Of a stretch of DNA of 64,000 nucleotides, positions 42,242 through 62,643 are shown in pieces. A program made the translations under genes and the position numbers. The notes under the pieces are model-generated. The model was not told where the DNA came from. It saw only the letters and a list, made by a program, of their open reading frames with translations, and ran no database searches. The DNA comes from Escherichia phage WPEC5: sequence record PV654397.1, one strand, 5' to 3'. Within the stretch, counting starts at the first letter, position 1. Each line of letters begins with the position of its first letter.

Positions 42242-42490
42242 AGGGACTCCATTAAAAATAATATCAATCCAATAATATACGATTCATATAAAAAGTCAAT
42301 AACATTTTATAAGTAATACCCCTTTATCGAAGTCGCTAAGGTTACCCGCCCTTTAGCCCCCTACGCATTTTGCCATAGTCCAATCCCTTTTTATTCATAA
42401 AAGTCAAGGGATTACCTATGCATTTTTTTAACGCTGAAGTTTAAAAATGCCTTGACTTTTTTATGATTCAGTACTAAATCCCTTTACGCA

Positions 42491-42700
42491 TTAATCCTTC
42501 GTTACGCTTACGATTATCTGTGTATCCCCATAGTCCTGCCATACTTCCACGCCAGCCGTCGCCCTGGTTAGTCGTGCTGTCATCTGCTTAATGGTCTTAG
42601 GCTTTAGTGGAACCTGTTGCAGTACTGTACGCATAGTATCATCGACGTTATCGTGTACGCCTGCAATAGTGCCTAGGACGCTGTATACTGTATAGAACAT
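42491..42700 (-). CDS. Hypothetical small protein
   Basis: Minus ORF. Confidence 0.45.
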   Translation of the reverse strand: MFYTVYSVLGTIAGVHDNVDDTMRTVLQQVPLKPKTIKQMTARLTRATAGVEVWQDYGDTQIIVSVTKD

Positions 42701-42768
42701 ATGTATGCCCTCCTGATATAGTTAAGGCCGCTACAAGGCGGCCTATGATGTTTGGTGATGTGTAACGC

Positions 42769-43233
42769 TTACAGTCCTAAGATAGTGCGTGCTTCGTTAC
42801 GTTCCGTGCACAGCTGCATGATGTGAGCAAGTAAGTCCTTGCTAATGTATCCGGTGTTCATAGCTTCACGAATAGATACATCATAAGCACCGAACCCCGT
42901 GCGAACGATACGCACATCATTCAGGTTAGTATTATAGATACCGCCGAGATCAACGGCTTCGAATACTACATCAACAGAATATTCATTGTTGCCATCGTGG
43001 AAGTTTTCCAGTGCAATAGTATTGGATACCGCCCAACGTTTGCAGTTTCCAATGATGCGGCACTGTTCCGGTTGGATAGTGCCATTACTTACAGCGTACT
43101 CCAGTGCATCTTTACCAAAAGTCCGAGCCAGTACTAAAACGTCAGCGAAGGAAGTGATTGAGAAGGTCATGATAAAACTCCTTAATTTAGGAGGGAGAAC
43201 CATTTCCCCCTCTCTATGTAAAACATTATACAT
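42769..43233 (-). CDS. Hypothetical protein (154 aa)
   Basis: Minus ORF preceded by hairpin and promoter. Confidence 0.55.
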   Translation of the reverse strand: MYNVLHREGEMVLPPKLRSFIMTFSITSFADVLVLARTFGKDALEYAVSNGTIQPEQCRIIGNCKRWAVSNTIALENFHDGNNEYSVDVVFEAVDLGGIYNTNLNDVRIVRTGFGAYDVSIREAMNTGYISKDLLAHIMQLCTERNEARTILGL

Positions 43234-43253
43234 GAATCTAAGTACTATGCAAG
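43189..43253 (-). promoter_or_regulatory. Promoter-hairpin cassette: TTGCAT, 16-nt spacer, TATAAT, then 5' UTR hairpin
   Basis: Minus strand reads CTTGCAtagtacttagattcatgTATAAT followed by a GGAGGGAGAA...TTTCCCCCTC hairpin and the ATG at 43233. Confidence 0.5.
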
Positions 43254-43255
43254 TA

Positions 43256-43591
43256 CTATTTCATTTTAATACCTGGATTCAGGTAACGGTGAGAGCCGTA
43301 TTCTGGAGAGGTTTCGGTCCAGTACAGTAAATCGATAGTCCCTTTAGCGTTAATCTTATCTACCAGCTTATTCATCTTAGCGTATACTACATCAGCATCG
43401 ATGCGTTTAAAGCCAGTAGCTTTAGTGAAGTAGTAATGATTTACTTCGCTATCGTTAAGGATATACCGAGAACCGTCAGCCGTTTGTGCGACAATGAATG
43501 AGAATGATACTTTACGATCAAGGCCGTCGCAGTATACAGATGAATCATTGGTACGGATGAAAGCTTTAACGATATCGATTGAAGTACTCAT
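43256..43591 (-). CDS. Hypothetical protein (111 aa)
   Basis: Minus ORF. Confidence 0.5.
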   Translation of the reverse strand: MSTSIDIVKAFIRTNDSSVYCDGLDRKVSFSFIVAQTADGSRYILNDSEVNHYYFTKATGFKRIDADVVYAKMNKLVDKINAKGTIDLLYWTETSPEYGSHRYLNPGIKMK

Positions 43592-43740
43592 GGTGAATCT
43601 CCTAACTTTGTGGGCCGTCGCACCGTTGCCGCCCTACGAGATACATTATTGCAGTACTGATATACTTTGTCAATACTTTTTTATTAATAGTTTTAGTTCC
43701 ACCAGCAGATAGTTACTCACCGTTATTAACTATATATTTT

Positions 43741-43828
43741 GGATACACCTATGCACCCTGTGGGCTAGTTTTTGTCTATGCGTATATAATAGCAAAGGGA
43801 CTGACCGGAGTCAATCCCTTTTTTTATT
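43741..43828. repeat. Copy a of a ~100-bp intergenic element
   Basis: GCACCCTGTGGGCT...TATATAATAGCAAAGGGACTGACCGGAGTCAATCCC then T-run; near-identical to copies at 46.0, 49.3 and 53.3 kb. Confidence 0.6.
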
Positions 43829-43837
43829 CTTTTTTTG

Positions 43838-44038
43838 TTAGATGATTCTCCAATCATCAACGATCATGGTAAGATACCGAACCAGTGATTCGAGTGATTC
43901 GTGTTCTCGATAGTCTGCCGCTCCACCAGCGGTACAAGTACAGCCGATTAAGCCGTTTTGTAGTTCCTGGATCTTTACGTCGATCTGGTTGGCTTTAGCT
44001 TCTTTCAGTACTTCAACCAGGGCGATAGCGATAGACAT
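43838..44038 (-). CDS. Hypothetical small protein
   Basis: Minus ORF preceded by hairpin and promoter. Confidence 0.5.
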   Translation of the reverse strand: MSIAIALVEVLKEAKANQIDVKIQELQNGLIGCTCTAGGAADYREHESLESLVRYLTMIVDDWRII

Positions 44039-44128
44039 AATGTTTTACTCCAAACTATTGGCGGGAGAACTATTCCCCCGCTCTATGTAAAACATTATAC
44101 ATTACTGGTTAGTACTGTCAAATAGTTT

Positions 44129-44386
44129 TTATGAAATATCTTCGATGTAGTCGGCCCATTTCATTTTTTCAGTACTGTCAATGGCTACCGGATTATTTGG
44201 ATCAAACCATTCACCATCACCGCAATACATACCCACGGCTACGGTTTTATAGCCATCCTGGGCCGTACACCACGACATTGCACGATAGATATGGCCTTTA
44301 ACTGGTTGCAGTACTGGTAACGTTTTATGGTCTTCTACGTAGGCCATAGCTTGAGGATTTACCCGATATTGTGTGAACTGATCCAT
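44129..44386 (-). CDS. Hypothetical small protein
   Basis: Minus ORF. Confidence 0.5.
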   Translation of the reverse strand: MDQFTQYRVNPQAMAYVEDHKTLPVLQPVKGHIYRAMSWCTAQDGYKTVAVGMYCGDGEWFDPNNPVAIDSTEKMKWADYIEDIS

Positions 44387-60678: not shown

Positions 60679-60761
60679 ATGTAAAACATTATACGCCTTT
60701 AAACATAGTTTGCAAGTACTTTTTAAAAATAGTTTTCAGTACTGAATATTAAAAAAAAGTA

Positions 60762-60790
60762 TTGACAGCATTATCAAGTACTGGCATAAT
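60762..60790 (+). promoter_or_regulatory. Plus-strand sigma70-like promoter (TTGACA, 17-nt spacer, CATAAT)
   Basis: Followed about 25 nt downstream by CCCACCGGGTGC; faces the minus promoter at 60906-60934. Confidence 0.45.
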
Positions 60791-60905
60791 ATACCCCATG
60801 ACAACAGCTAACCCACCGGGTGCACAATTGTAACTATACTAAACTAATTTTGCTATAGATACACTCCCGCACCCTATGGGCTACGGCTTATCTGCCAATG
60901 AATAC

Positions 60906-60934
60906 ATTATGCCAGTACTGACAAAATAAGTCAA
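60906..60934 (-). promoter_or_regulatory. Minus-strand promoter (TTGACT, 17-nt spacer, CATAAT)
   Basis: rc of plus AGTCAA...ATTATG; followed by AGCCCATAGGGTGC; convergent with the plus promoter. Confidence 0.45.
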
Positions 60935-60964
60935 TACCGGCAATTGTAAAGATTTGTAAACTGC

Positions 60965-61195
60965 TTATACTGCAATCGCGTCCAGGCTGTAATAATAATA
61001 AGTGCCGTATTGGTGTACTTTATTACCTTTTATTTCAGTACTGAATGAATCCGAACGATTTGCATATGATGTTAATTTAAAGTACTTTGATTTGCTGATA
61101 CGTTGCCATACACCACAGATCCGCTGTAAGTAAGTAGTTTTATTCGTGGTAGTATCTTTTACGGTTTTAACTTCAGTCATATACATATTAGTCAT
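60965..61195 (-). CDS. Hypothetical small protein
   Basis: Minus ORF. Confidence 0.5.
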   Translation of the reverse strand: MTNMYMTEVKTVKDTTTNKTTYLQRICGVWQRISKSKYFKLTSYANRSDSFSTEIKGNKVHQYGTYYYYSLDAIAV

Positions 61196-61282
61196 TTTTA
61201 TTACTCCAGGTTATAGGCGGGAAGTGTTCCCGCTCTCGATGTAAAACATTATACGCCATTAAACATAGTTTGCAAGTACTTT

Positions 61283-61549
61283 TTATTCAAGTACTGCAAT
61301 CTTTTTTGTACGGTACACGGTCACGCGGTTGCCCTTTCGGTCGAGCTTTATTTCTACCACTCGACGCGATACACTATCGGGACTTTTTAAGGCCGCTAAC
61401 CAGTACTGTAATGATCTGGCGGTACTACGCTTTACAATGGCCCAACGTTTACCACGTTCCGATTGTACGCCCATATCTTTAAACGTTGCCCCGTCCTGGC
61501 GTGCGGCGATCCGAGCTTGTTCACGCGTCGCAAAATACTTAATATTCAT
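61283..61549 (-). CDS. Hypothetical protein (paralog of 47597..48001)
   Basis: Shared motifs; start moved to internal Met. Confidence 0.55.
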   Translation of the reverse strand: MNIKYFATREQARIAARQDGATFKDMGVQSERGKRWAIVKRSTARSLQYWLAALKSPDSVSRRVVEIKLDRKGNRVTVYRTKKIAVLE

Positions 61550-61637
61550 GCTGTTGCCCTTATCGTTGGTGTATGAATAAAACACTATTATAAAGTACTA
61601 TCCCCGTGCAATAGTACTTTAAATAAATTCTATTCTA

Positions 61638-61877
61638 TTACATTCCAACCATCGCCGCACGGATCGCAGTAGTGCTATATTTGAATCCGTCCGGTGTTTT
61701 ATCTTGTCCAGTCTGTTCTAAAAATAACATCATATGACGGGCCGCATCATTGCGATTAGTGTTGTCGTTAATAAAATCCAGGGCCAACCGATACAATCCC
61801 TCATCGTTATTAATCCACAGGCTTACATTCCAATGAGTTTTGTTTTTGTGACCTAAGAACATTTTTGATTTAGCCAT
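61638..61877 (-). CDS. Hypothetical small protein (paralog of 59596..59835)
   Basis: Shared motifs; start moved to internal Met. Confidence 0.55.
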   Translation of the reverse strand: MAKSKMFLGHKNKTHWNVSLWINNDEGLYRLALDFINDNTNRNDAARHMMLFLEQTGQDKTPDGFKYSTTAIRAAMVGM

Positions 61878-61970
61878 TTTTTTAATCCTCTTATATAGTG
61901 GGGAACTATTCCCCACCTGATGTAAAACATTATACGCTTTTAAACATAGTTTGCAAGTACTTTATTAAAC

Positions 61971-62333
61971 TTATTTGTAAATTTTGCCACTGTCAGCCCA
62001 TACCAGGAAACGAGGCATATTATCCCATGCATCTTGTTTTAAGTTTAAGCCGTGCAATTCCTCAGTTGTTGCCATCCCTGGTACTGGCTTACTACACACC
62101 GCGAAATTTTCGCCCATATACTGATAAACCATCGTCAAATCATTTGAGATCATTATATGGATCATTGAATCCAGCATCAAAGTAGCGGCGTATTGTTCAC
62201 GCTTAAGCGGCAACATTGCAATAAGTTCCCGATAAGCTGCAATGTGAATTTTTACCGTTTCAGCCGGAAGACCTTTCATCTCATCGCGGAAGTTTACCAG
62301 GTTAAGCATGATTTTATTGATTTGAGTCGCCAT
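61971..62333 (-). CDS. Hypothetical protein
   Basis: Start moved to internal Met (MATQINK); the track extension translates the hairpin. Confidence 0.5.
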   Translation of the reverse strand: MATQINKIMLNLVNFRDEMKGLPAETVKIHIAAYRELIAMLPLKREQYAATLMLDSMIHIMISNDLTMVYQYMGENFAVCSKPVPGMATTEELHGLNLKQDAWDNMPRFLVWADSGKIYK

Positions 62334-62643
62334 CGTTTTAATCTCTCTTAATGTGTAGCGGGAAGTGTTCCCGCTCTCGATGTAAAACATTATACGCTTT
62401 TATCAGTACGGTGCAAGTACTTTCTACAAATACTTTTAAAATAGTTTTCTTTCTATATAGGAGTACTATTATTCAGTACTGAATCAATCCACCAAATCAT
62501 CCCTATACCCCGTAAAACGGCCTCAGACGCATTCTAACGCATTAATACACCTAAGCTATACATTTGCACCACTCCCAACAATCCAGGGCGTTACGGGCCG
62601 TTTAAACGCGTTAAATTATTTTCAATTATTTTGTTTTTAGGTA

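Follow-up and report, generated by a model that had tools for sequence, protein, structure and literature searches.

We analyzed a 64,000-nucleotide (nt) stretch of Escherichia phage WPEC5 (sequence record PV654397.1), hereafter the window, and found that between positions 42300 and 62400 many of its small genes, all on the minus strand, are preceded by a repeated cassette composed of a near-consensus sigma70-type promoter, a G-rich hairpin located within the predicted transcript, a Shine-Dalgarno (SD) sequence, and the ATG. We consider it probable that these are immediate-early cassettes in the direct terminal repeat (DTR) of a jumbo phage, that the hairpin stabilizes the mRNA or insulates the ribosome-binding site, and that recombination between cassettes reshuffles the genes. 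The interval is that of a first-pass annotation, made from the sequence alone, which had described about 50 such cassettes in a hyperplastic region and had matched them to the promoter early stem-loop (PeSL) elements of T4-type phages.

The closest megablast matches of the region were all to Asteriusvirus, that is, to Rak2-like jumbo coliphages (BF17, fEgEco12, G17, 121Q, PBECO4, and others), and a T4-type identity was ruled out. Identity to these relatives was 89 to 98% in the aligned parts and the relatives spanned just 26 to 82% of the region, indicating that the region is a mosaic. As mapped from the annotated DTR of the relative vB_Ec-M-J, the sequence from about 42340 to 64000 (about 21.7 kb) is the DTR of the Asteriusvirus genome. 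The DTR of vB_Ec-M-J is annotated at 1 to 21525, and position 21525 of that record, whose inner part was fetched and aligned, maps to about 42340 in the window, where both the GC content and the density of the palindrome AGTACT shift. The left edge of the first-pass interval (42300) coincided with this boundary; the right edge did not hold, as the feature continues past 62400 to about 63640.

42340..64000, minus strand: DTR; inner edge at about 42340, genome terminus just beyond 64000

Because the genome end lies just past 64000 and all genes from 42300 to 64000 are on the minus strand, the genes are read from the terminus inward. Hand curation of 42300 to 62400 gave about 56 small genes of 29 to 203 amino acids (aa). 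Recognizable among the DTR proteins were a DksA/TraR-type zinc finger (51389..51132) and a GNAT acetyltransferase (51068..50712); the gene at 46677..46093 gave a weak kinase-like match, and the remaining proteins mostly matched PHROGs without an assigned function. Such a gene content would suit an early region devoted to host takeover. Copies of the 91-nt cassette detectable by BLAST numbered 10, 9, and 12 in the DTR loci of 121Q, slurp01, and A4, and the whole records of about 350 kb held 9, 9, and 12 such places; since the two sets of counts are nearly equal, the cassette appears to be confined to the DTR.

Promoters were counted with a strict scan (TTG followed by ACA, CAA, or CAT with at most 1 mismatch, a spacer of 16 to 18 nt, and TATAAT with at most 1 mismatch), and a composite was defined as such a promoter followed by a G+C-rich hairpin of at least 7 bp. 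Between 42300 and 62400, the scan returned 46 promoters and 24 composites on the minus strand, compared with means of 4.0 promoters and 0.015 composites in Markov-1 simulations of the region, so that the sigma70-type promoters proposed earlier are present far above chance. On the plus strand there were 8 promoters and 0 composites, and a plus-strand function was rejected. The other 42.3 kb of the window held 37 weaker promoter-like matches and 0 composites. An independent consensus scan (at least 10 of 12 matches) placed 39 of its 45 sites on the minus (gene) strand, and overall 46 to 49 near-consensus sigma70-type promoters were recognized on that strand.

The hairpin accompanies about half of these promoters. 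Hand curation yielded 26 complete cassettes (promoter, G-rich hairpin, SD, and ATG), about half the number claimed by the first-pass annotation, whose count was right for promoters (about 49) and whose description of the motif was accurate. Its statement that nearly every small gene has its own promoter and hairpin was too broad: about 16 genes are served by a promoter and a short leader that lacks the hairpin, with ACATCAACTACTGAAT-AGG as a recurrent leader type, and about 12 are operonic, being translationally coupled to another gene or stacked close behind one. Units that contain no open reading frame (ORF) follow at least 13 promoters.

On the minus strand, a unit runs from the stop codon of the previous gene through an A-rich tract 5' of the -35 element, (A)AGTACTTGCAA or TTGACA, 16 nt, TATAAT, the start region, the hairpin, and the SD to the ATG. 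The -35 element of the cassettes is TTGCAA, TTGCAT, TTGCAC, or TTGACA, the spacer is 16 nt and rarely 17 nt, and the -10 element is TATAAT; the start region, with the consensus (G/A)(T/G)TTTACAT(C/G/A), lies a few bases before the hairpin. The stem, of the GGGGAGAA/TTCTCCCC type, has 7 to 9 bp, a loop of 3 to 5 nt, and a mean folding free energy of -14 kcal/mol; it begins 10 to 14 nt past the -10 element (mode, 12) and ends 15 to 23 nt before the ATG. Between hairpin and SD (AGGAG, AAGAGG, or AAGGA) there are 5 to 10 bases, and between SD and ATG 6 to 9. The cassettes are listed here from the terminus inward.

62331..62416, minus strand: cassette 1; -35 TTGCAC 62416, -10 TATAAT 62394, hairpin 62375-62357 (AGCGGGAA CAC TTCCCGCT), ATG 62333, 120 aa ending at 61971
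61875..61956, minus strand: cassette 2; TTGCAA/TATAAT, hairpin 61917-61897 (GGTGGGGAA TAG TTCCCCACT), ATG 61877, 79 aa
61193..61275, minus strand: cassette 3; TTGCAA/TATAAT, hairpin 61233-61217 (GCGGGAA CAC TTCCCGC), ATG 61195, 76 aa
59833..59913, minus strand: cassette 4; TTGCAA/TATAAT, hairpin 59873-59853 (GGCGGGGAG TGG TTCCCCGCT), ATG 59835, 79 aa, paralog of the cassette 2 gene
58706..58786, minus strand: cassette 5; TTGCAA/TATAAT, hairpin 58746-58727 (AGGGAGAA ATGG TTCTCCCT), ATG 58708, 73 aa
58240..58317, minus strand: cassette 6; TTGCAA/TATAAT, hairpin 58281-58262 (TAGGGGGA GCGG TTCCCCTG), ATG 58242, 78 aa, gene common to Vequintavirinae phage A73
57919..58000, minus strand: cassette 7; TTGATA/TATAAT, hairpin 57959-57941 (AGGGGGAG CGG TTCCCCCT), ATG 57921, 99 aa
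55841..55920, minus strand: cassette 8; TTGCAA/TATAAT, hairpin 55880-55861 (GGGGAGAA ATGG TTCTCCCC), ATG 55843, 47 aa, common to A73
54326..54407, minus strand: cassette 9; TTGCAA/TATAAT, hairpin 54367-54348 (GGGGAGAA ATGA TTCTCCCC), ATG 54328, 48 aa
54097..54178, minus strand: cassette 10; TTGCAA/TATAAT, hairpin 54140-54121 (AAGGGGAA AACG TTCCCCTT), ATG 54099, 83 aa
53759..53839, minus strand: cassette 11; TTGCAA/TATAAT, hairpin 53799-53780 (GGGGAGAA ATGA TTCTCCCC), ATG 53761, 50 aa
53166..53247, minus strand: cassette 12; TTGCAA/TATAAT, hairpin 53206-53188 (AGGGGAAA CGG TTTCCCCT), ATG 53168, 113 aa
52729..52812, minus strand: cassette 13; TTGACA/TATAAT, hairpin 52772-52752 (GGGGAGAA AATGA TTCTCCCC), ATG 52731, 70 aa
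50629..50708, minus strand: cassette 14; TTGCAT-17-TATAGT, hairpin 50669-50651 (AGGGGAA ACATC TTCCCCT), ATG 50631, 62 aa
50357..50434, minus strand: cassette 15; TTGACA/TATAAT, hairpin 50394-50375 (GGGGAGAA ATGA TTCTCCCC), ATG 50359, 98 aa; a different gene in 4 relatives
49987..50066, minus strand: cassette 16; TTGACA/TATAAT, hairpin 50026-50007 (GGGGAGAA ATGA TTCTCCCC), ATG 49989, 70 aa
49688..49769, minus strand: cassette 17; TTGCAC/TATAAT, hairpin 49728-49712 (AGGGGAA TAG TTCCCCT, extendable to CGGAAGGGG../..CCCCTCCG), ATG 49690, 57 aa
48679..48766, minus strand: cassette 18; TTGACA/TATAAT, hairpin 48724-48705 (GAGGGGAA ACGG TTCCCCTC), ATG 48681, 60 aa
48409..48495, minus strand: cassette 19; TTGACA/TATAAT, hairpin 48453-48435 (GAGGGGAA TGG TTCCCCTC), ATG 48411, 107 aa
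45870..45951, minus strand: cassette 20; TTGCAT/TATAAT, hairpin 45910-45892 (AGGGGGAA CGG TTCTCCCT, one G.U pair), ATG 45872, 73 aa
45564..45647, minus strand: cassette 21; TTGACA/TATAAT, hairpin 45607-45589 (GGGGAGAA TAG TTCTCCCC), ATG 45566, 90 aa; extra gene and cassette here in G17, fEgEco12, and A4
45016..45098, minus strand: cassette 22; TTGCAT/TATAAT, hairpin 45058-45037 (GAGGGGGAA ATGG TTTCCCCTC), ATG 45018, 87 aa
44685..44762, minus strand: cassette 23; TTGCAT/TATAAT, hairpin 44724-44706 (GGGGGAG ATATC CTCCCCC), ATG 44687, 74 aa
44036..44121, minus strand: cassette 24; TTGACA/TATAAT, hairpin 44081-44061 (GCGGGGGAA TAG TTCTCCCGC, one G.U pair), ATG 44038, 66 aa
43589..43673, minus strand: cassette 25 (variant); TTGACA-17-AATAAT, imperfect hairpin at about 43634-43612 (GGGCGGCAACGGTGCGACGGCCC), ATG 43591, 111 aa
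43168..43252, minus strand: cassette 26; TTGCAT/TATAAT, hairpin at about 43212-43191 (GAGGGGGAA ATGG TTCTCCCTC, one G.U pair), ATG 43170, 133 aa
59536..59606, minus strand: degenerate cassette; hairpin GGCGGG-TAATAGTT-CCCGCC 59576-59557, SD, ATG 59538, weak promoter only (TTGGAA-18-GATAAT)

The G17 ortholog of the hairpin in the degenerate cassette (59576-59557) is annotated as an ARNOLD terminator. One further minus-strand promoter, at 61611-61587 upstream of gene 61549, has TTGCAC and TATAAT just 13 nt apart, and its paralogous copy at 48065 reads TTGACA-17-TATAAT; the former is probably inactive, because its spacer was probably shortened by deletion.

The position of the hairpin relative to the transcript was judged from a predicted start at the A of the conserved CAT, the eighth base past the -10 element. 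The predicted RNA begins AUCAA-GGGGAGAA... and has an unpaired 5' tail of about 5 nt (range, 3 to 7, depending on the true start site); the hairpin begins at about +4 to +8 and spans about +6 to +27, with its center near +17. The cassette stems are followed by sequences of the ACTAAGAGG or GGTAATAAGG type, with no T tract, and 0 of the 26 passed a terminator scan of the minus strand that nine other hairpins of the region did pass. Among the ARNOLD terminators annotated in the orthologous region of G17, 10 of 11 are other hairpins with T tracts and not cassette hairpins. A hairpin that terminated efficiently at this position would shut off the very gene that the promoter serves, and a constitutive terminator is therefore improbable. 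As the hairpin follows the predicted start and no U tract is attached to it, we class it as a leader element and not as a canonical terminator. The evidence, which includes the predicted start site, thus favors an RNA-level leader structure, in agreement with the first-pass annotation, which had placed the hairpin in the 5' untranslated region.

Selection on the pairing was examined in 139 promoter-associated hairpins (39 distinct sequences) from the window and nine related loci, all of which were on the gene strand. MAFFT set whole cassettes and hairpins with native loops out of register, and for pair counting the loops were replaced by a fixed TTTT. When 22 distinct stems from 9 phages were aligned arm to arm, 97% of the cells were paired, a value that is inflated by the use of a hairpin search to pick the stems; it is the double-sided changes and the slid controls that are informative. 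All 8 stem pairs change on both sides, with 34 such cells compared with 8.9 in column shuffles and 0 to 5 when the partner was slid by 1 to 3 columns. Internal mismatches of the core stem (7 to 9 bp) were G.T only and never A.C, meaning that pairing is possible on the mRNA strand alone. The same architecture was found in Klebsiella phage Muenster (Alcyoneusvirus), within a 20-kb DTR (1 to 20030) defined by PhageTerm, where the stems are unrelated and longer but stand at the same distance from the -10 element and have no T tract (GGAGATTCCA/TGGAATCTCC, GGGAATGAA/TTCATTCCC, GGGGATACA/TGTATCCCC, and GGGGCAA/TTGCCCC). These sequence comparisons indicate that the pairing of the hairpin is selected and that it acts on RNA. 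An exact-pattern scan of IMG/VR (TACATNNNGGGGAGAA-N3-5-TTCTCCCC) matched only the 121Q genome itself and added no diversity.

In folding predictions, the hairpin was part of the minimum-free-energy structure of 24 of 25 predicted primary leaders, and its 5' arm was paired with a probability of 0.83 when 150 nt of upstream RNA was added. The predicted folding is consistent with an autonomous element. A role as an RNase III site was rejected, the 8-bp stems being too short.

To follow the genes between cassettes, the DTRs of eight relatives were compared with the window by chained local megablast matches. Within 42300 to 62400 there were 37 distinct insertion/deletion (indel) or replacement junctions, and 54 of 62 breakpoints lay outside gene cores (37.6% expected; P value of about 1e-15). 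A concentration of the surviving indels in intergenic DNA would also be expected from purifying selection by itself. Recombination between cassettes is specifically indicated by repeat-flanked junctions and by a chimeric cassette. At 16 of the 37 junctions the local alignments overlapped by 45 to 99 bp, that is, the junctions were flanked by cassette repeats; such an overlap is the mark left when a segment is lost or gained between direct repeats, which in this case are cassettes. The gene at 54099..53848 lies between two cassettes in the window, whereas fEgEco12 has a single cassette in its place, the 5' half of which is that of gene 54099 and the 3' half that of gene 53761; the two halves meet at the -10/start region, where the crossover lies. 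The same single-cassette state was found in EcMJ, BF17, slurp01, UE-S1, and G17, and 121Q has a larger deletion. One gene may also be replaced by one other between cassettes, as at 50080-50443 (362 bp versus 345 bp). The gene content between cassette boundaries thus differs among relatives through gain, loss, and replacement, with the junctions mostly outside gene cores, and the modular shuffling that had been proposed was borne out.

Outside the genus, the Vequintavirinae phage A73 (142 kb) has the same cassette, at least five of the same gene modules, and a structured leader of the window (the Y-leader), at 74 to 84% nucleotide identity and in another order (by window position, 60.7k, 56.2-55.7k, 52.7k, 61.9k, 53.1k, and 58.2k). 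Cassette exchange, as judged from these matches, appears to cross phage family lines. Weaker cassette matches were obtained in Phapecoctavirus, RaK2, and Salmonella and Klebsiella jumbo phages.

On the reading that we consider probable, the DTR would be an immediate-early region of the host-takeover type in which unmodified host sigma70 RNA polymerase transcribes inward from the genome end. Its small, mostly uncharacterized genes (about 56) are arranged as self-contained expression cassettes. Each cassette has an A/T-rich upstream tract, near-consensus -35 and -10 elements, a predicted CAT start, a short leader, a strong SD, and an ATG. In 26 of the leaders, a hairpin of 7 to 9 bp with a G-rich 5' arm follows a predicted 5' tail of about 5 nt and lies within the promoter's own mRNA. 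Most likely, the hairpin prolongs the life of the mRNA, shields the ribosome-binding site from upstream sequence, or does both, which would let a cassette work alike wherever it is placed, whether it is transcribed from its own promoter or by read-through. Because the cassettes of 80 to 90 bp are near-identical repeats, homologous recombination between them would delete, insert, replace, and reorder genes, both within the genus and between phage families. A precedent for stabilization exists in E. coli, where 5' secondary structure stabilizes mRNAs such as ompA and papA because both RppH and RNase E require a 5' end that is single stranded (PMC3997798). The cassette hairpin is likewise a stable hairpin upstream of the SD and, by the predicted start site, near the 5' end of the mRNA.

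Several points weigh against this reading. The predicted unpaired tail of about 5 nt is longer than in the classical ompA and papA stabilizers, which are located no more than a few nt from the 5' end, and a short single-stranded end is enough for RppH and RNase E (PMC3997798), so that a stabilizer role is not assured. A limit on tail length for 5' stabilizer hairpins was reportedly described by Emory, Bouvet, and Belasco in 1992. Transcript data for Asteriusvirus, and transcript maps for either Asteriusvirus or Vequintavirinae, were not found in the searched literature, the coverage of which left most subscription journals outside, and the start site, early timing, and read-through are predictions. 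About 16 genes of the region do without the hairpin, which is therefore not needed for expression. The predicted mean unpaired probability of the SD was 0.64, versus 0.47 in 10 hairpin-less leaders, a difference that is suggestive only, coming from small samples and no statistical test. Moreover, the arms have a fixed polarity in both genera: purine-rich, SD-like sequence (GGAG/GAGG) is always on the 5' side and pyrimidine-rich sequence always on the 3' side. Structure alone does not explain this polarity, which would leave room for a factor-binding or ribosome-related role. Finally, a PeSL stem-loop of phage RB49 (G-run, loop, C-run, likewise without a T tract) behind a strong promoter lowered downstream lacZ expression as strongly as did rrnB T1 (PMC2839356); by analogy, some attenuation of read-through by the cassette hairpins is conceivable.

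Carried further, the lacZ result would make the hairpin a PeSL-type attenuator or terminator that damps upstream transcription, and in part its own, so that the dense promoters are not toxic downstream. The cassette stems share the G-run/C-run type with PeSL, and with about 49 promoters per 20 kb and only about 10 T-tract terminators, read-through would otherwise pile up. We nevertheless regard attenuation as an unlikely function, since a hairpin that terminated efficiently between a promoter and its own gene would silence the gene, since no T tract follows the hairpin in a phage that has canonical T-tract terminators elsewhere in the region, and since the RB49 hairpin, unlike those of the window, is upstream of the start and spares its promoter's own transcript.

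The arm polarity, in turn, bears on the possibility that early mRNAs are recognized at the hairpin by an RNA-binding factor of phage or host origin. Such a factor, acting as a repressor of translation or as an endoribonuclease, would switch off or boost the early class as a whole. T4 provides an analogy, as its RegB reportedly cuts GGAG in early messages and its RegA is said to repress early translation. Besides the strict polarity, the conservation of the G-rich, SD-like 5' arm (GGGGAGAA, GAGGGGAA, and AAAGGAGA) across two genera while the rest of the stem varies, the fixed distance to the start site and SD, and the presence of the element on only a subset of early genes, as for a regulon, would all suit such a factor. 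However, the loop varies (3 to 5 nt) and the stems vary by compensatory change, which argues against a sequence-specific site, and no candidate protein was identified, although no search for a RegA or RegB homolog was made. We hold a binding factor to be improbable.

It is very unlikely that the inverted repeat acts on DNA, as a repressor operator at early promoters or as a cruciform or recognition site that targets recombination. A protein bound at the center near +17 could block elongation, crossovers do occur within cassettes, and Arbiol et al. speculated that a GGGG...CCCC motif is the target of a recombination protein (PMC2839356). Yet G.T wobbles of the core are A.C mismatches on the other strand, and no A.C was seen; half-sites and spacing vary by compensatory change, unlike those of operators; and 139 of 139 copies have the same orientation relative to the gene. 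Furthermore, the mapped crossover is at the -10/start region and not in the stem, and ordinary homologous recombination over repeats of 45 to 99 bp explains the junctions. We give hardly any credence to the view that the hairpin is a functionless passenger, multiplied by duplication and gene conversion along with a single successful promoter cassette: although many copies are near identical (GGGGAGAA-ATGA-TTCTCCCC occurs 23 times in 10 sequences) and hairpin-less cassettes work alongside hairpin-bearing ones, 22 distinct stems keep pairing through double changes, another stem set stands at the same position in another genus (Muenster), and broken hairpins are rare.

The relation to PeSL was assessed from Arbiol et al. 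2010 (PMC2839356) and Comeau et al. 2014 (PMC4122927), which cover RB49/phi1, PST/T4, and nt-1/KVP40, and by direct examination of 17 RB49 intergenic regions (RB49 14723-32333). The published PeSL stem-loop lies between or over the -35 and -10 elements, upstream of the -35 element, or just before the start and was interpreted and tested as a terminator/attenuator (PMC2839356). In the RB49 regions, the hairpin was in the -35/-10 spacer (TTGACA-GGGGATC...GATCCCC-TATAAT) or spanned the -10 element, upstream of the start and absent from its own RNA. In both systems, small ORFan genes of a hyperplastic region are preceded by repeats that combine a near-consensus sigma70 promoter, a stem-loop of the G-run/C-run type, and an SD, and in both, indel end points fall within the repeats and leave chimeric cassettes (PMC2839356, PMC4122927). 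They differ in that the present hairpin is in the transcript (from about +4 to +8) whereas the RB49 stem-loop is upstream of the start site, and in that the present cassettes are confined to the DTR of a Rak2-like phage whereas PeSLs occupy several internal hyperplastic regions of T4-like phages (Straboviridae). The only overlap of the PeSL type in the window is in four terminator/-35 composites (53376, 49359, 46081, and 43821). The PeSL match of the first-pass annotation therefore stands for promoter, stem type, SD, ORFans, and recombination and fails for the location of the hairpin in its own transcript. The system works like PeSL in driving modular gene shuffling and is outside PeSL by the published geometry and terminator interpretation.

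RB49 early leaders also share strings with those of the window (CATCAAGACGAGA after the -10 element, AGGAGAATCAAAATG-like sequence at the start codon, and AGGAGAAnCAAAATG). These matches hint at either a common early promoter/leader pool or convergence on an optimal E. coli initial transcribed sequence.

Other phages offer partial parallels. SPO1 has 26 small early genes in about 12.4 kb of a terminal region, with promoters and ribosome-binding sites of the kind found in highly expressed genes and a function in host shut-off (PMC6873191). The likeness is in small early genes clustered at a genome end with signals of the highly expressed type, the early role being a predicted one in the present case. 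T5 is a further parallel to the terminal early region. The gene content and hosts of SPO1 and T5 are unrelated, and no repeated promoter-hairpin leader or cassette shuffling was found described there. Among jumbo phages, CBB (vB_PcaM_CBB) has RpoD-type consensus promoters that carry UP-like elements, are concentrated where the ORFs are short and hypothetical, and reach into its 22-kb terminal repeat (PMC5259590), and PA5oct, which depends on host RNA polymerase, has highly transcribed noncoding RNAs in its DTR (PMC7318152). These two differ in having 18 and 32 promoters per genome, and a leader hairpin, cassette repeats, and shuffling are not described for them (PMC5259590, PMC7318152). Neither hairpin-leader cassettes nor their shuffling were found described for Rak2-like or rV5-like phages in the literature covered. 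Morons and integron cassettes are similar in that a single gene moves together with its own expression signals and enters between genes already present. However, morons carry a promoter and a terminator and have no conserved flanking repeat, and integrons use an integrase and attC, whereas here the expression signal is itself the recombining repeat and no dedicated recombinase was evident.

Promoters of the region with hairpin-less leaders were as follows.

60535..60597, minus strand: promoter and leader; TTGACA-16-TATAAT, ACATCAACTACTGAATGAGGG, ATG 60537, 203 aa
59201..59269, minus strand: promoter and leader; ATG 59203, 60 aa; a partial leader copy (from the -10 element) precedes ATG 58981
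56376..56451, minus strand: promoter and leader; TTGCAC-16-TATAAT, ATG 56378, 50 aa
56154..56217, minus strand: promoter and leader; TTGACA-17-CATAAT (TG-extended), ATG 56156, 75 aa, common to A73
55608..55680, minus strand: promoter and leader; TTGACA-17-CATAAT, ATG 55610, 107 aa
52434..52499, minus strand: promoter and leader; TTGACA-17-CATAAT, ATG 52436, 59 aa
52164..52238, minus strand: promoter and leader; TTGACA-16-TATAAT, ATG 52166, 47 aa
51066..51125, minus strand: promoter and leader; TTGACA-16-TATAAT, ATG 51068, 118-aa GNAT acetyltransferase
49043..49106, minus strand: promoter and leader; TTGACA-16-TATAAT, ATG 49045, 91 aa; downstream of Y-leader copy A2
47990..48065, minus strand: promoter and leader; TTGACA-17-TATAAT, ATG 47992, 131 aa
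47225..47284, minus strand: promoter; TTGACA-17-TACTAT, ATG 47227, 72 aa
46949..47008, minus strand: promoter; TTGACA-17-TACTAT, ATG 46951, 80 aa
44384..44443, minus strand: promoter; TTGACA-17-TGTAAT, ATG 44386, 85 aa

The Y-leader is about 80 nt long, has its own promoter, and occurs in three copies in the window as well as in A73 (5914-6030) and Muenster (about 5046-5150). Its closing helix is AUCAGG/CCUGAU (AUCAAG/CUUUGAU in the variant), and its inner stem covaries (GGAG/CUCC, CCAG/CUGG, and CCUG/CAGG) around a conserved loop, UAAGNCNNACGAAAAA. It may be a cis-regulatory leader or a small RNA.

60600..60715, minus strand: Y-leader copy A1; promoter and structured ORF-less leader of about 80 nt, then the promoter at 60597
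49110..49222, minus strand: Y-leader copy A2; promoter and Y-leader, then the promoter at 49106
57134..57287, minus strand: Y-leader variant B (leader 57287-57160); TTGACA-16-TAGAAT, long leader of ATG 57136, 160 aa

A second repeated family, the CCCAYNGGGTGC units, consists of ten ORF-less units with strong promoters on both strands (6 minus, 4 plus), two of which converge at 60762-60934. Usually a small covarying hairpin (GACG/CGTC, GGC/GCC, CGC/GCG, or GTC/GAC) is followed by an invariant CCCA(Y)NGGGTGC, about 27 to 31 nt past the -10 element. RNAalifold recovered the invariant CCC/GGG stem alone, MAFFT having misaligned the covarying upstream hairpin. The family is kept in Klebsiella phage Muenster, and its members are candidate small RNAs or transcription-primed DNA elements. 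In the four terminator/-35 composites, a bidirectional-looking terminator, AAAGGGATTGACTCCGGTCAGTCCCTTT, holds the -35 element (TTGACT) of the next promoter in its stem, and its T tract runs into the -10 element (TATTAT).

60860..60934, minus strand: ORF-less promoter unit; CCCATAGGGTGCG motif
53290..53376, minus strand: terminator/-35 composite and ORF-less unit; hairpin AAAGTGGTTGACTCCGGTCAGCCATTTT (53376-53349), -35 within the stem, CCCACAGGGTGC unit 53369-53290
51640..51715, minus strand: ORF-less promoter unit; TTGACA-17-CATAAT, GACGAGAACGTC hairpin, CCCATAGGGTGC
49275..49359, minus strand: terminator/-35 composite and ORF-less unit; hairpin AAAGGGATTGACTCCGGTCAGTCCCTTT (49359-49332), -35 embedded, CCCACAGGGTGC unit 49352-49275
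45995..46081, minus strand: terminator/-35 composite and ORF-less unit; terminator hairpin 46081-46054, -35 embedded, CCCATAGGGTGC unit 46074-45995
43740..43821, minus strand: terminator/-35 composite and ORF-less unit; terminator hairpin 43821-43794, -35 embedded, CCCACAGGGTGC unit 43814-43740
58352..58445, plus strand: ORF-less promoter unit; TTGACA-17-CATAAT, CCCACCGGGTGC
60762..60850, plus strand: ORF-less promoter unit; convergent with the minus-strand unit at 60934
62644..62740, plus strand: ORF-less promoter unit; TTGACT..TATAAT, CCCAGAGGGTGCG
62860..62955, plus strand: ORF-less promoter unit; CCCACCGGGTGC

Apart from these composites, the following terminators were recorded.

58460..58482, minus strand: intrinsic terminator with T tract; GCGGGGAG..CTCCCCGT TACTTTTT
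57347..57363, minus strand: intrinsic terminator; AGCCCACCTGGTGGGCT TTTTTG
56611..56632, minus strand: intrinsic terminator; AGCCCACC..GGTGGGCT TTTTTG
51991..52016, minus strand: terminator-like hairpin; AGCCCACTGG..CTGGTGGGCT TTAATCATTT
47556..47574, minus strand: intrinsic terminator; GGCGGGATCAGTTCCCGCC TTTTTT

The covariance models of Rfam 15 gave 0 matches at the gathering threshold in the whole window and 0 at an E value of 1 or less in 42300 to 64000, leaving the hairpin leader, the Y-leader, and the CCCAYNGGGTGC units without an Rfam match, and a tRNA scan with ARAGORN gave no match.

The palindrome AGTACT, often in the form CAGTACTG, occurs 260 times in the window versus 21 expected (about 12-fold) and in all three codon phases. 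Its density per kb is 3 to 4 in 1 to 30 kb, 0.8 to 1.7 in 30 to 42.3 kb, and 5.6 to 9.4 in the DTR. In DTR promoters it takes two fixed places, abutting the -35 element (AGTACTTGCAA; 19 of 49) or the -10 element (AGTACTGTATAAT; 21 of 49), and Klebsiella phage Muenster shows the same degree of enrichment (160 in 22 kb). An extended -10 element made by AGTACTG was rejected, as the TG is one base out of register. No description of this enrichment was found in the literature searched, subscription journals again being outside the coverage; AGTACT may be a protein-binding or modification site.

The terminal 1.6 kb of the window (62400-64000) is noncoding and has a strong promoter at 63635-63608, two ORF-less units, and repeats, namely, short GGCTAAACGGCTAGAT-like direct repeats at about 63140-63230 and repeats of the AATTACCCCTT..GGGGTAA type. 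This is probably the packaging or end-recognition region of the genome. On the other side of the DTR, the adjoining part of the unique region (36338-42241) is occupied on the minus strand by an array of 18 tandem paralogs of 65 to 90 aa with overlapping stop and start codons; it contains few promoter-like matches and 0 promoter-hairpin cassettes, and one more member of the family is at 20946-20755. The interval from 11 to 36 kb is filled by other paralog families, with genes of 110 to 190 aa on the same strand as the DTR genes.

A wider proposal may be entertained, doubtful as it is. The DTRs of Rak2-like phages and the early regions of unrelated coliphages (Vequintavirinae and, to judge by shared leader strings, even the RB49 type) would share one pool of early cassettes, in which the hairpin is a dedicated regulatory handle for a factor and more than a stabilizer, the repeats also encode small structured RNAs of at least two undescribed families (the Y-leader and the CCCAYNGGGTGC units), and the promoters are framed by AGTACT sites, overrepresented throughout the genome, that are bound or modified by a phage protein.

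Evolution by the swapping of cassettes, known only in T4-like phages, now extends to Rak2-like jumbo phages and their terminal repeats, and the exchange appears to reach across phage families. Since each hairpin is predicted to be transcribed together with its gene, reporters could show directly what this leader element does to the lifetime or translation of the mRNA. In practical terms, the region provides about 49 natural E. coli promoters, predicted to be strong, with standardized leaders, and the cassettes predict where engineered genes could be placed without disturbing their neighbors. For the biology of these phages, the cassettes mark likely immediate-early host-takeover genes among the many uncharacterized genes of jumbo phages.

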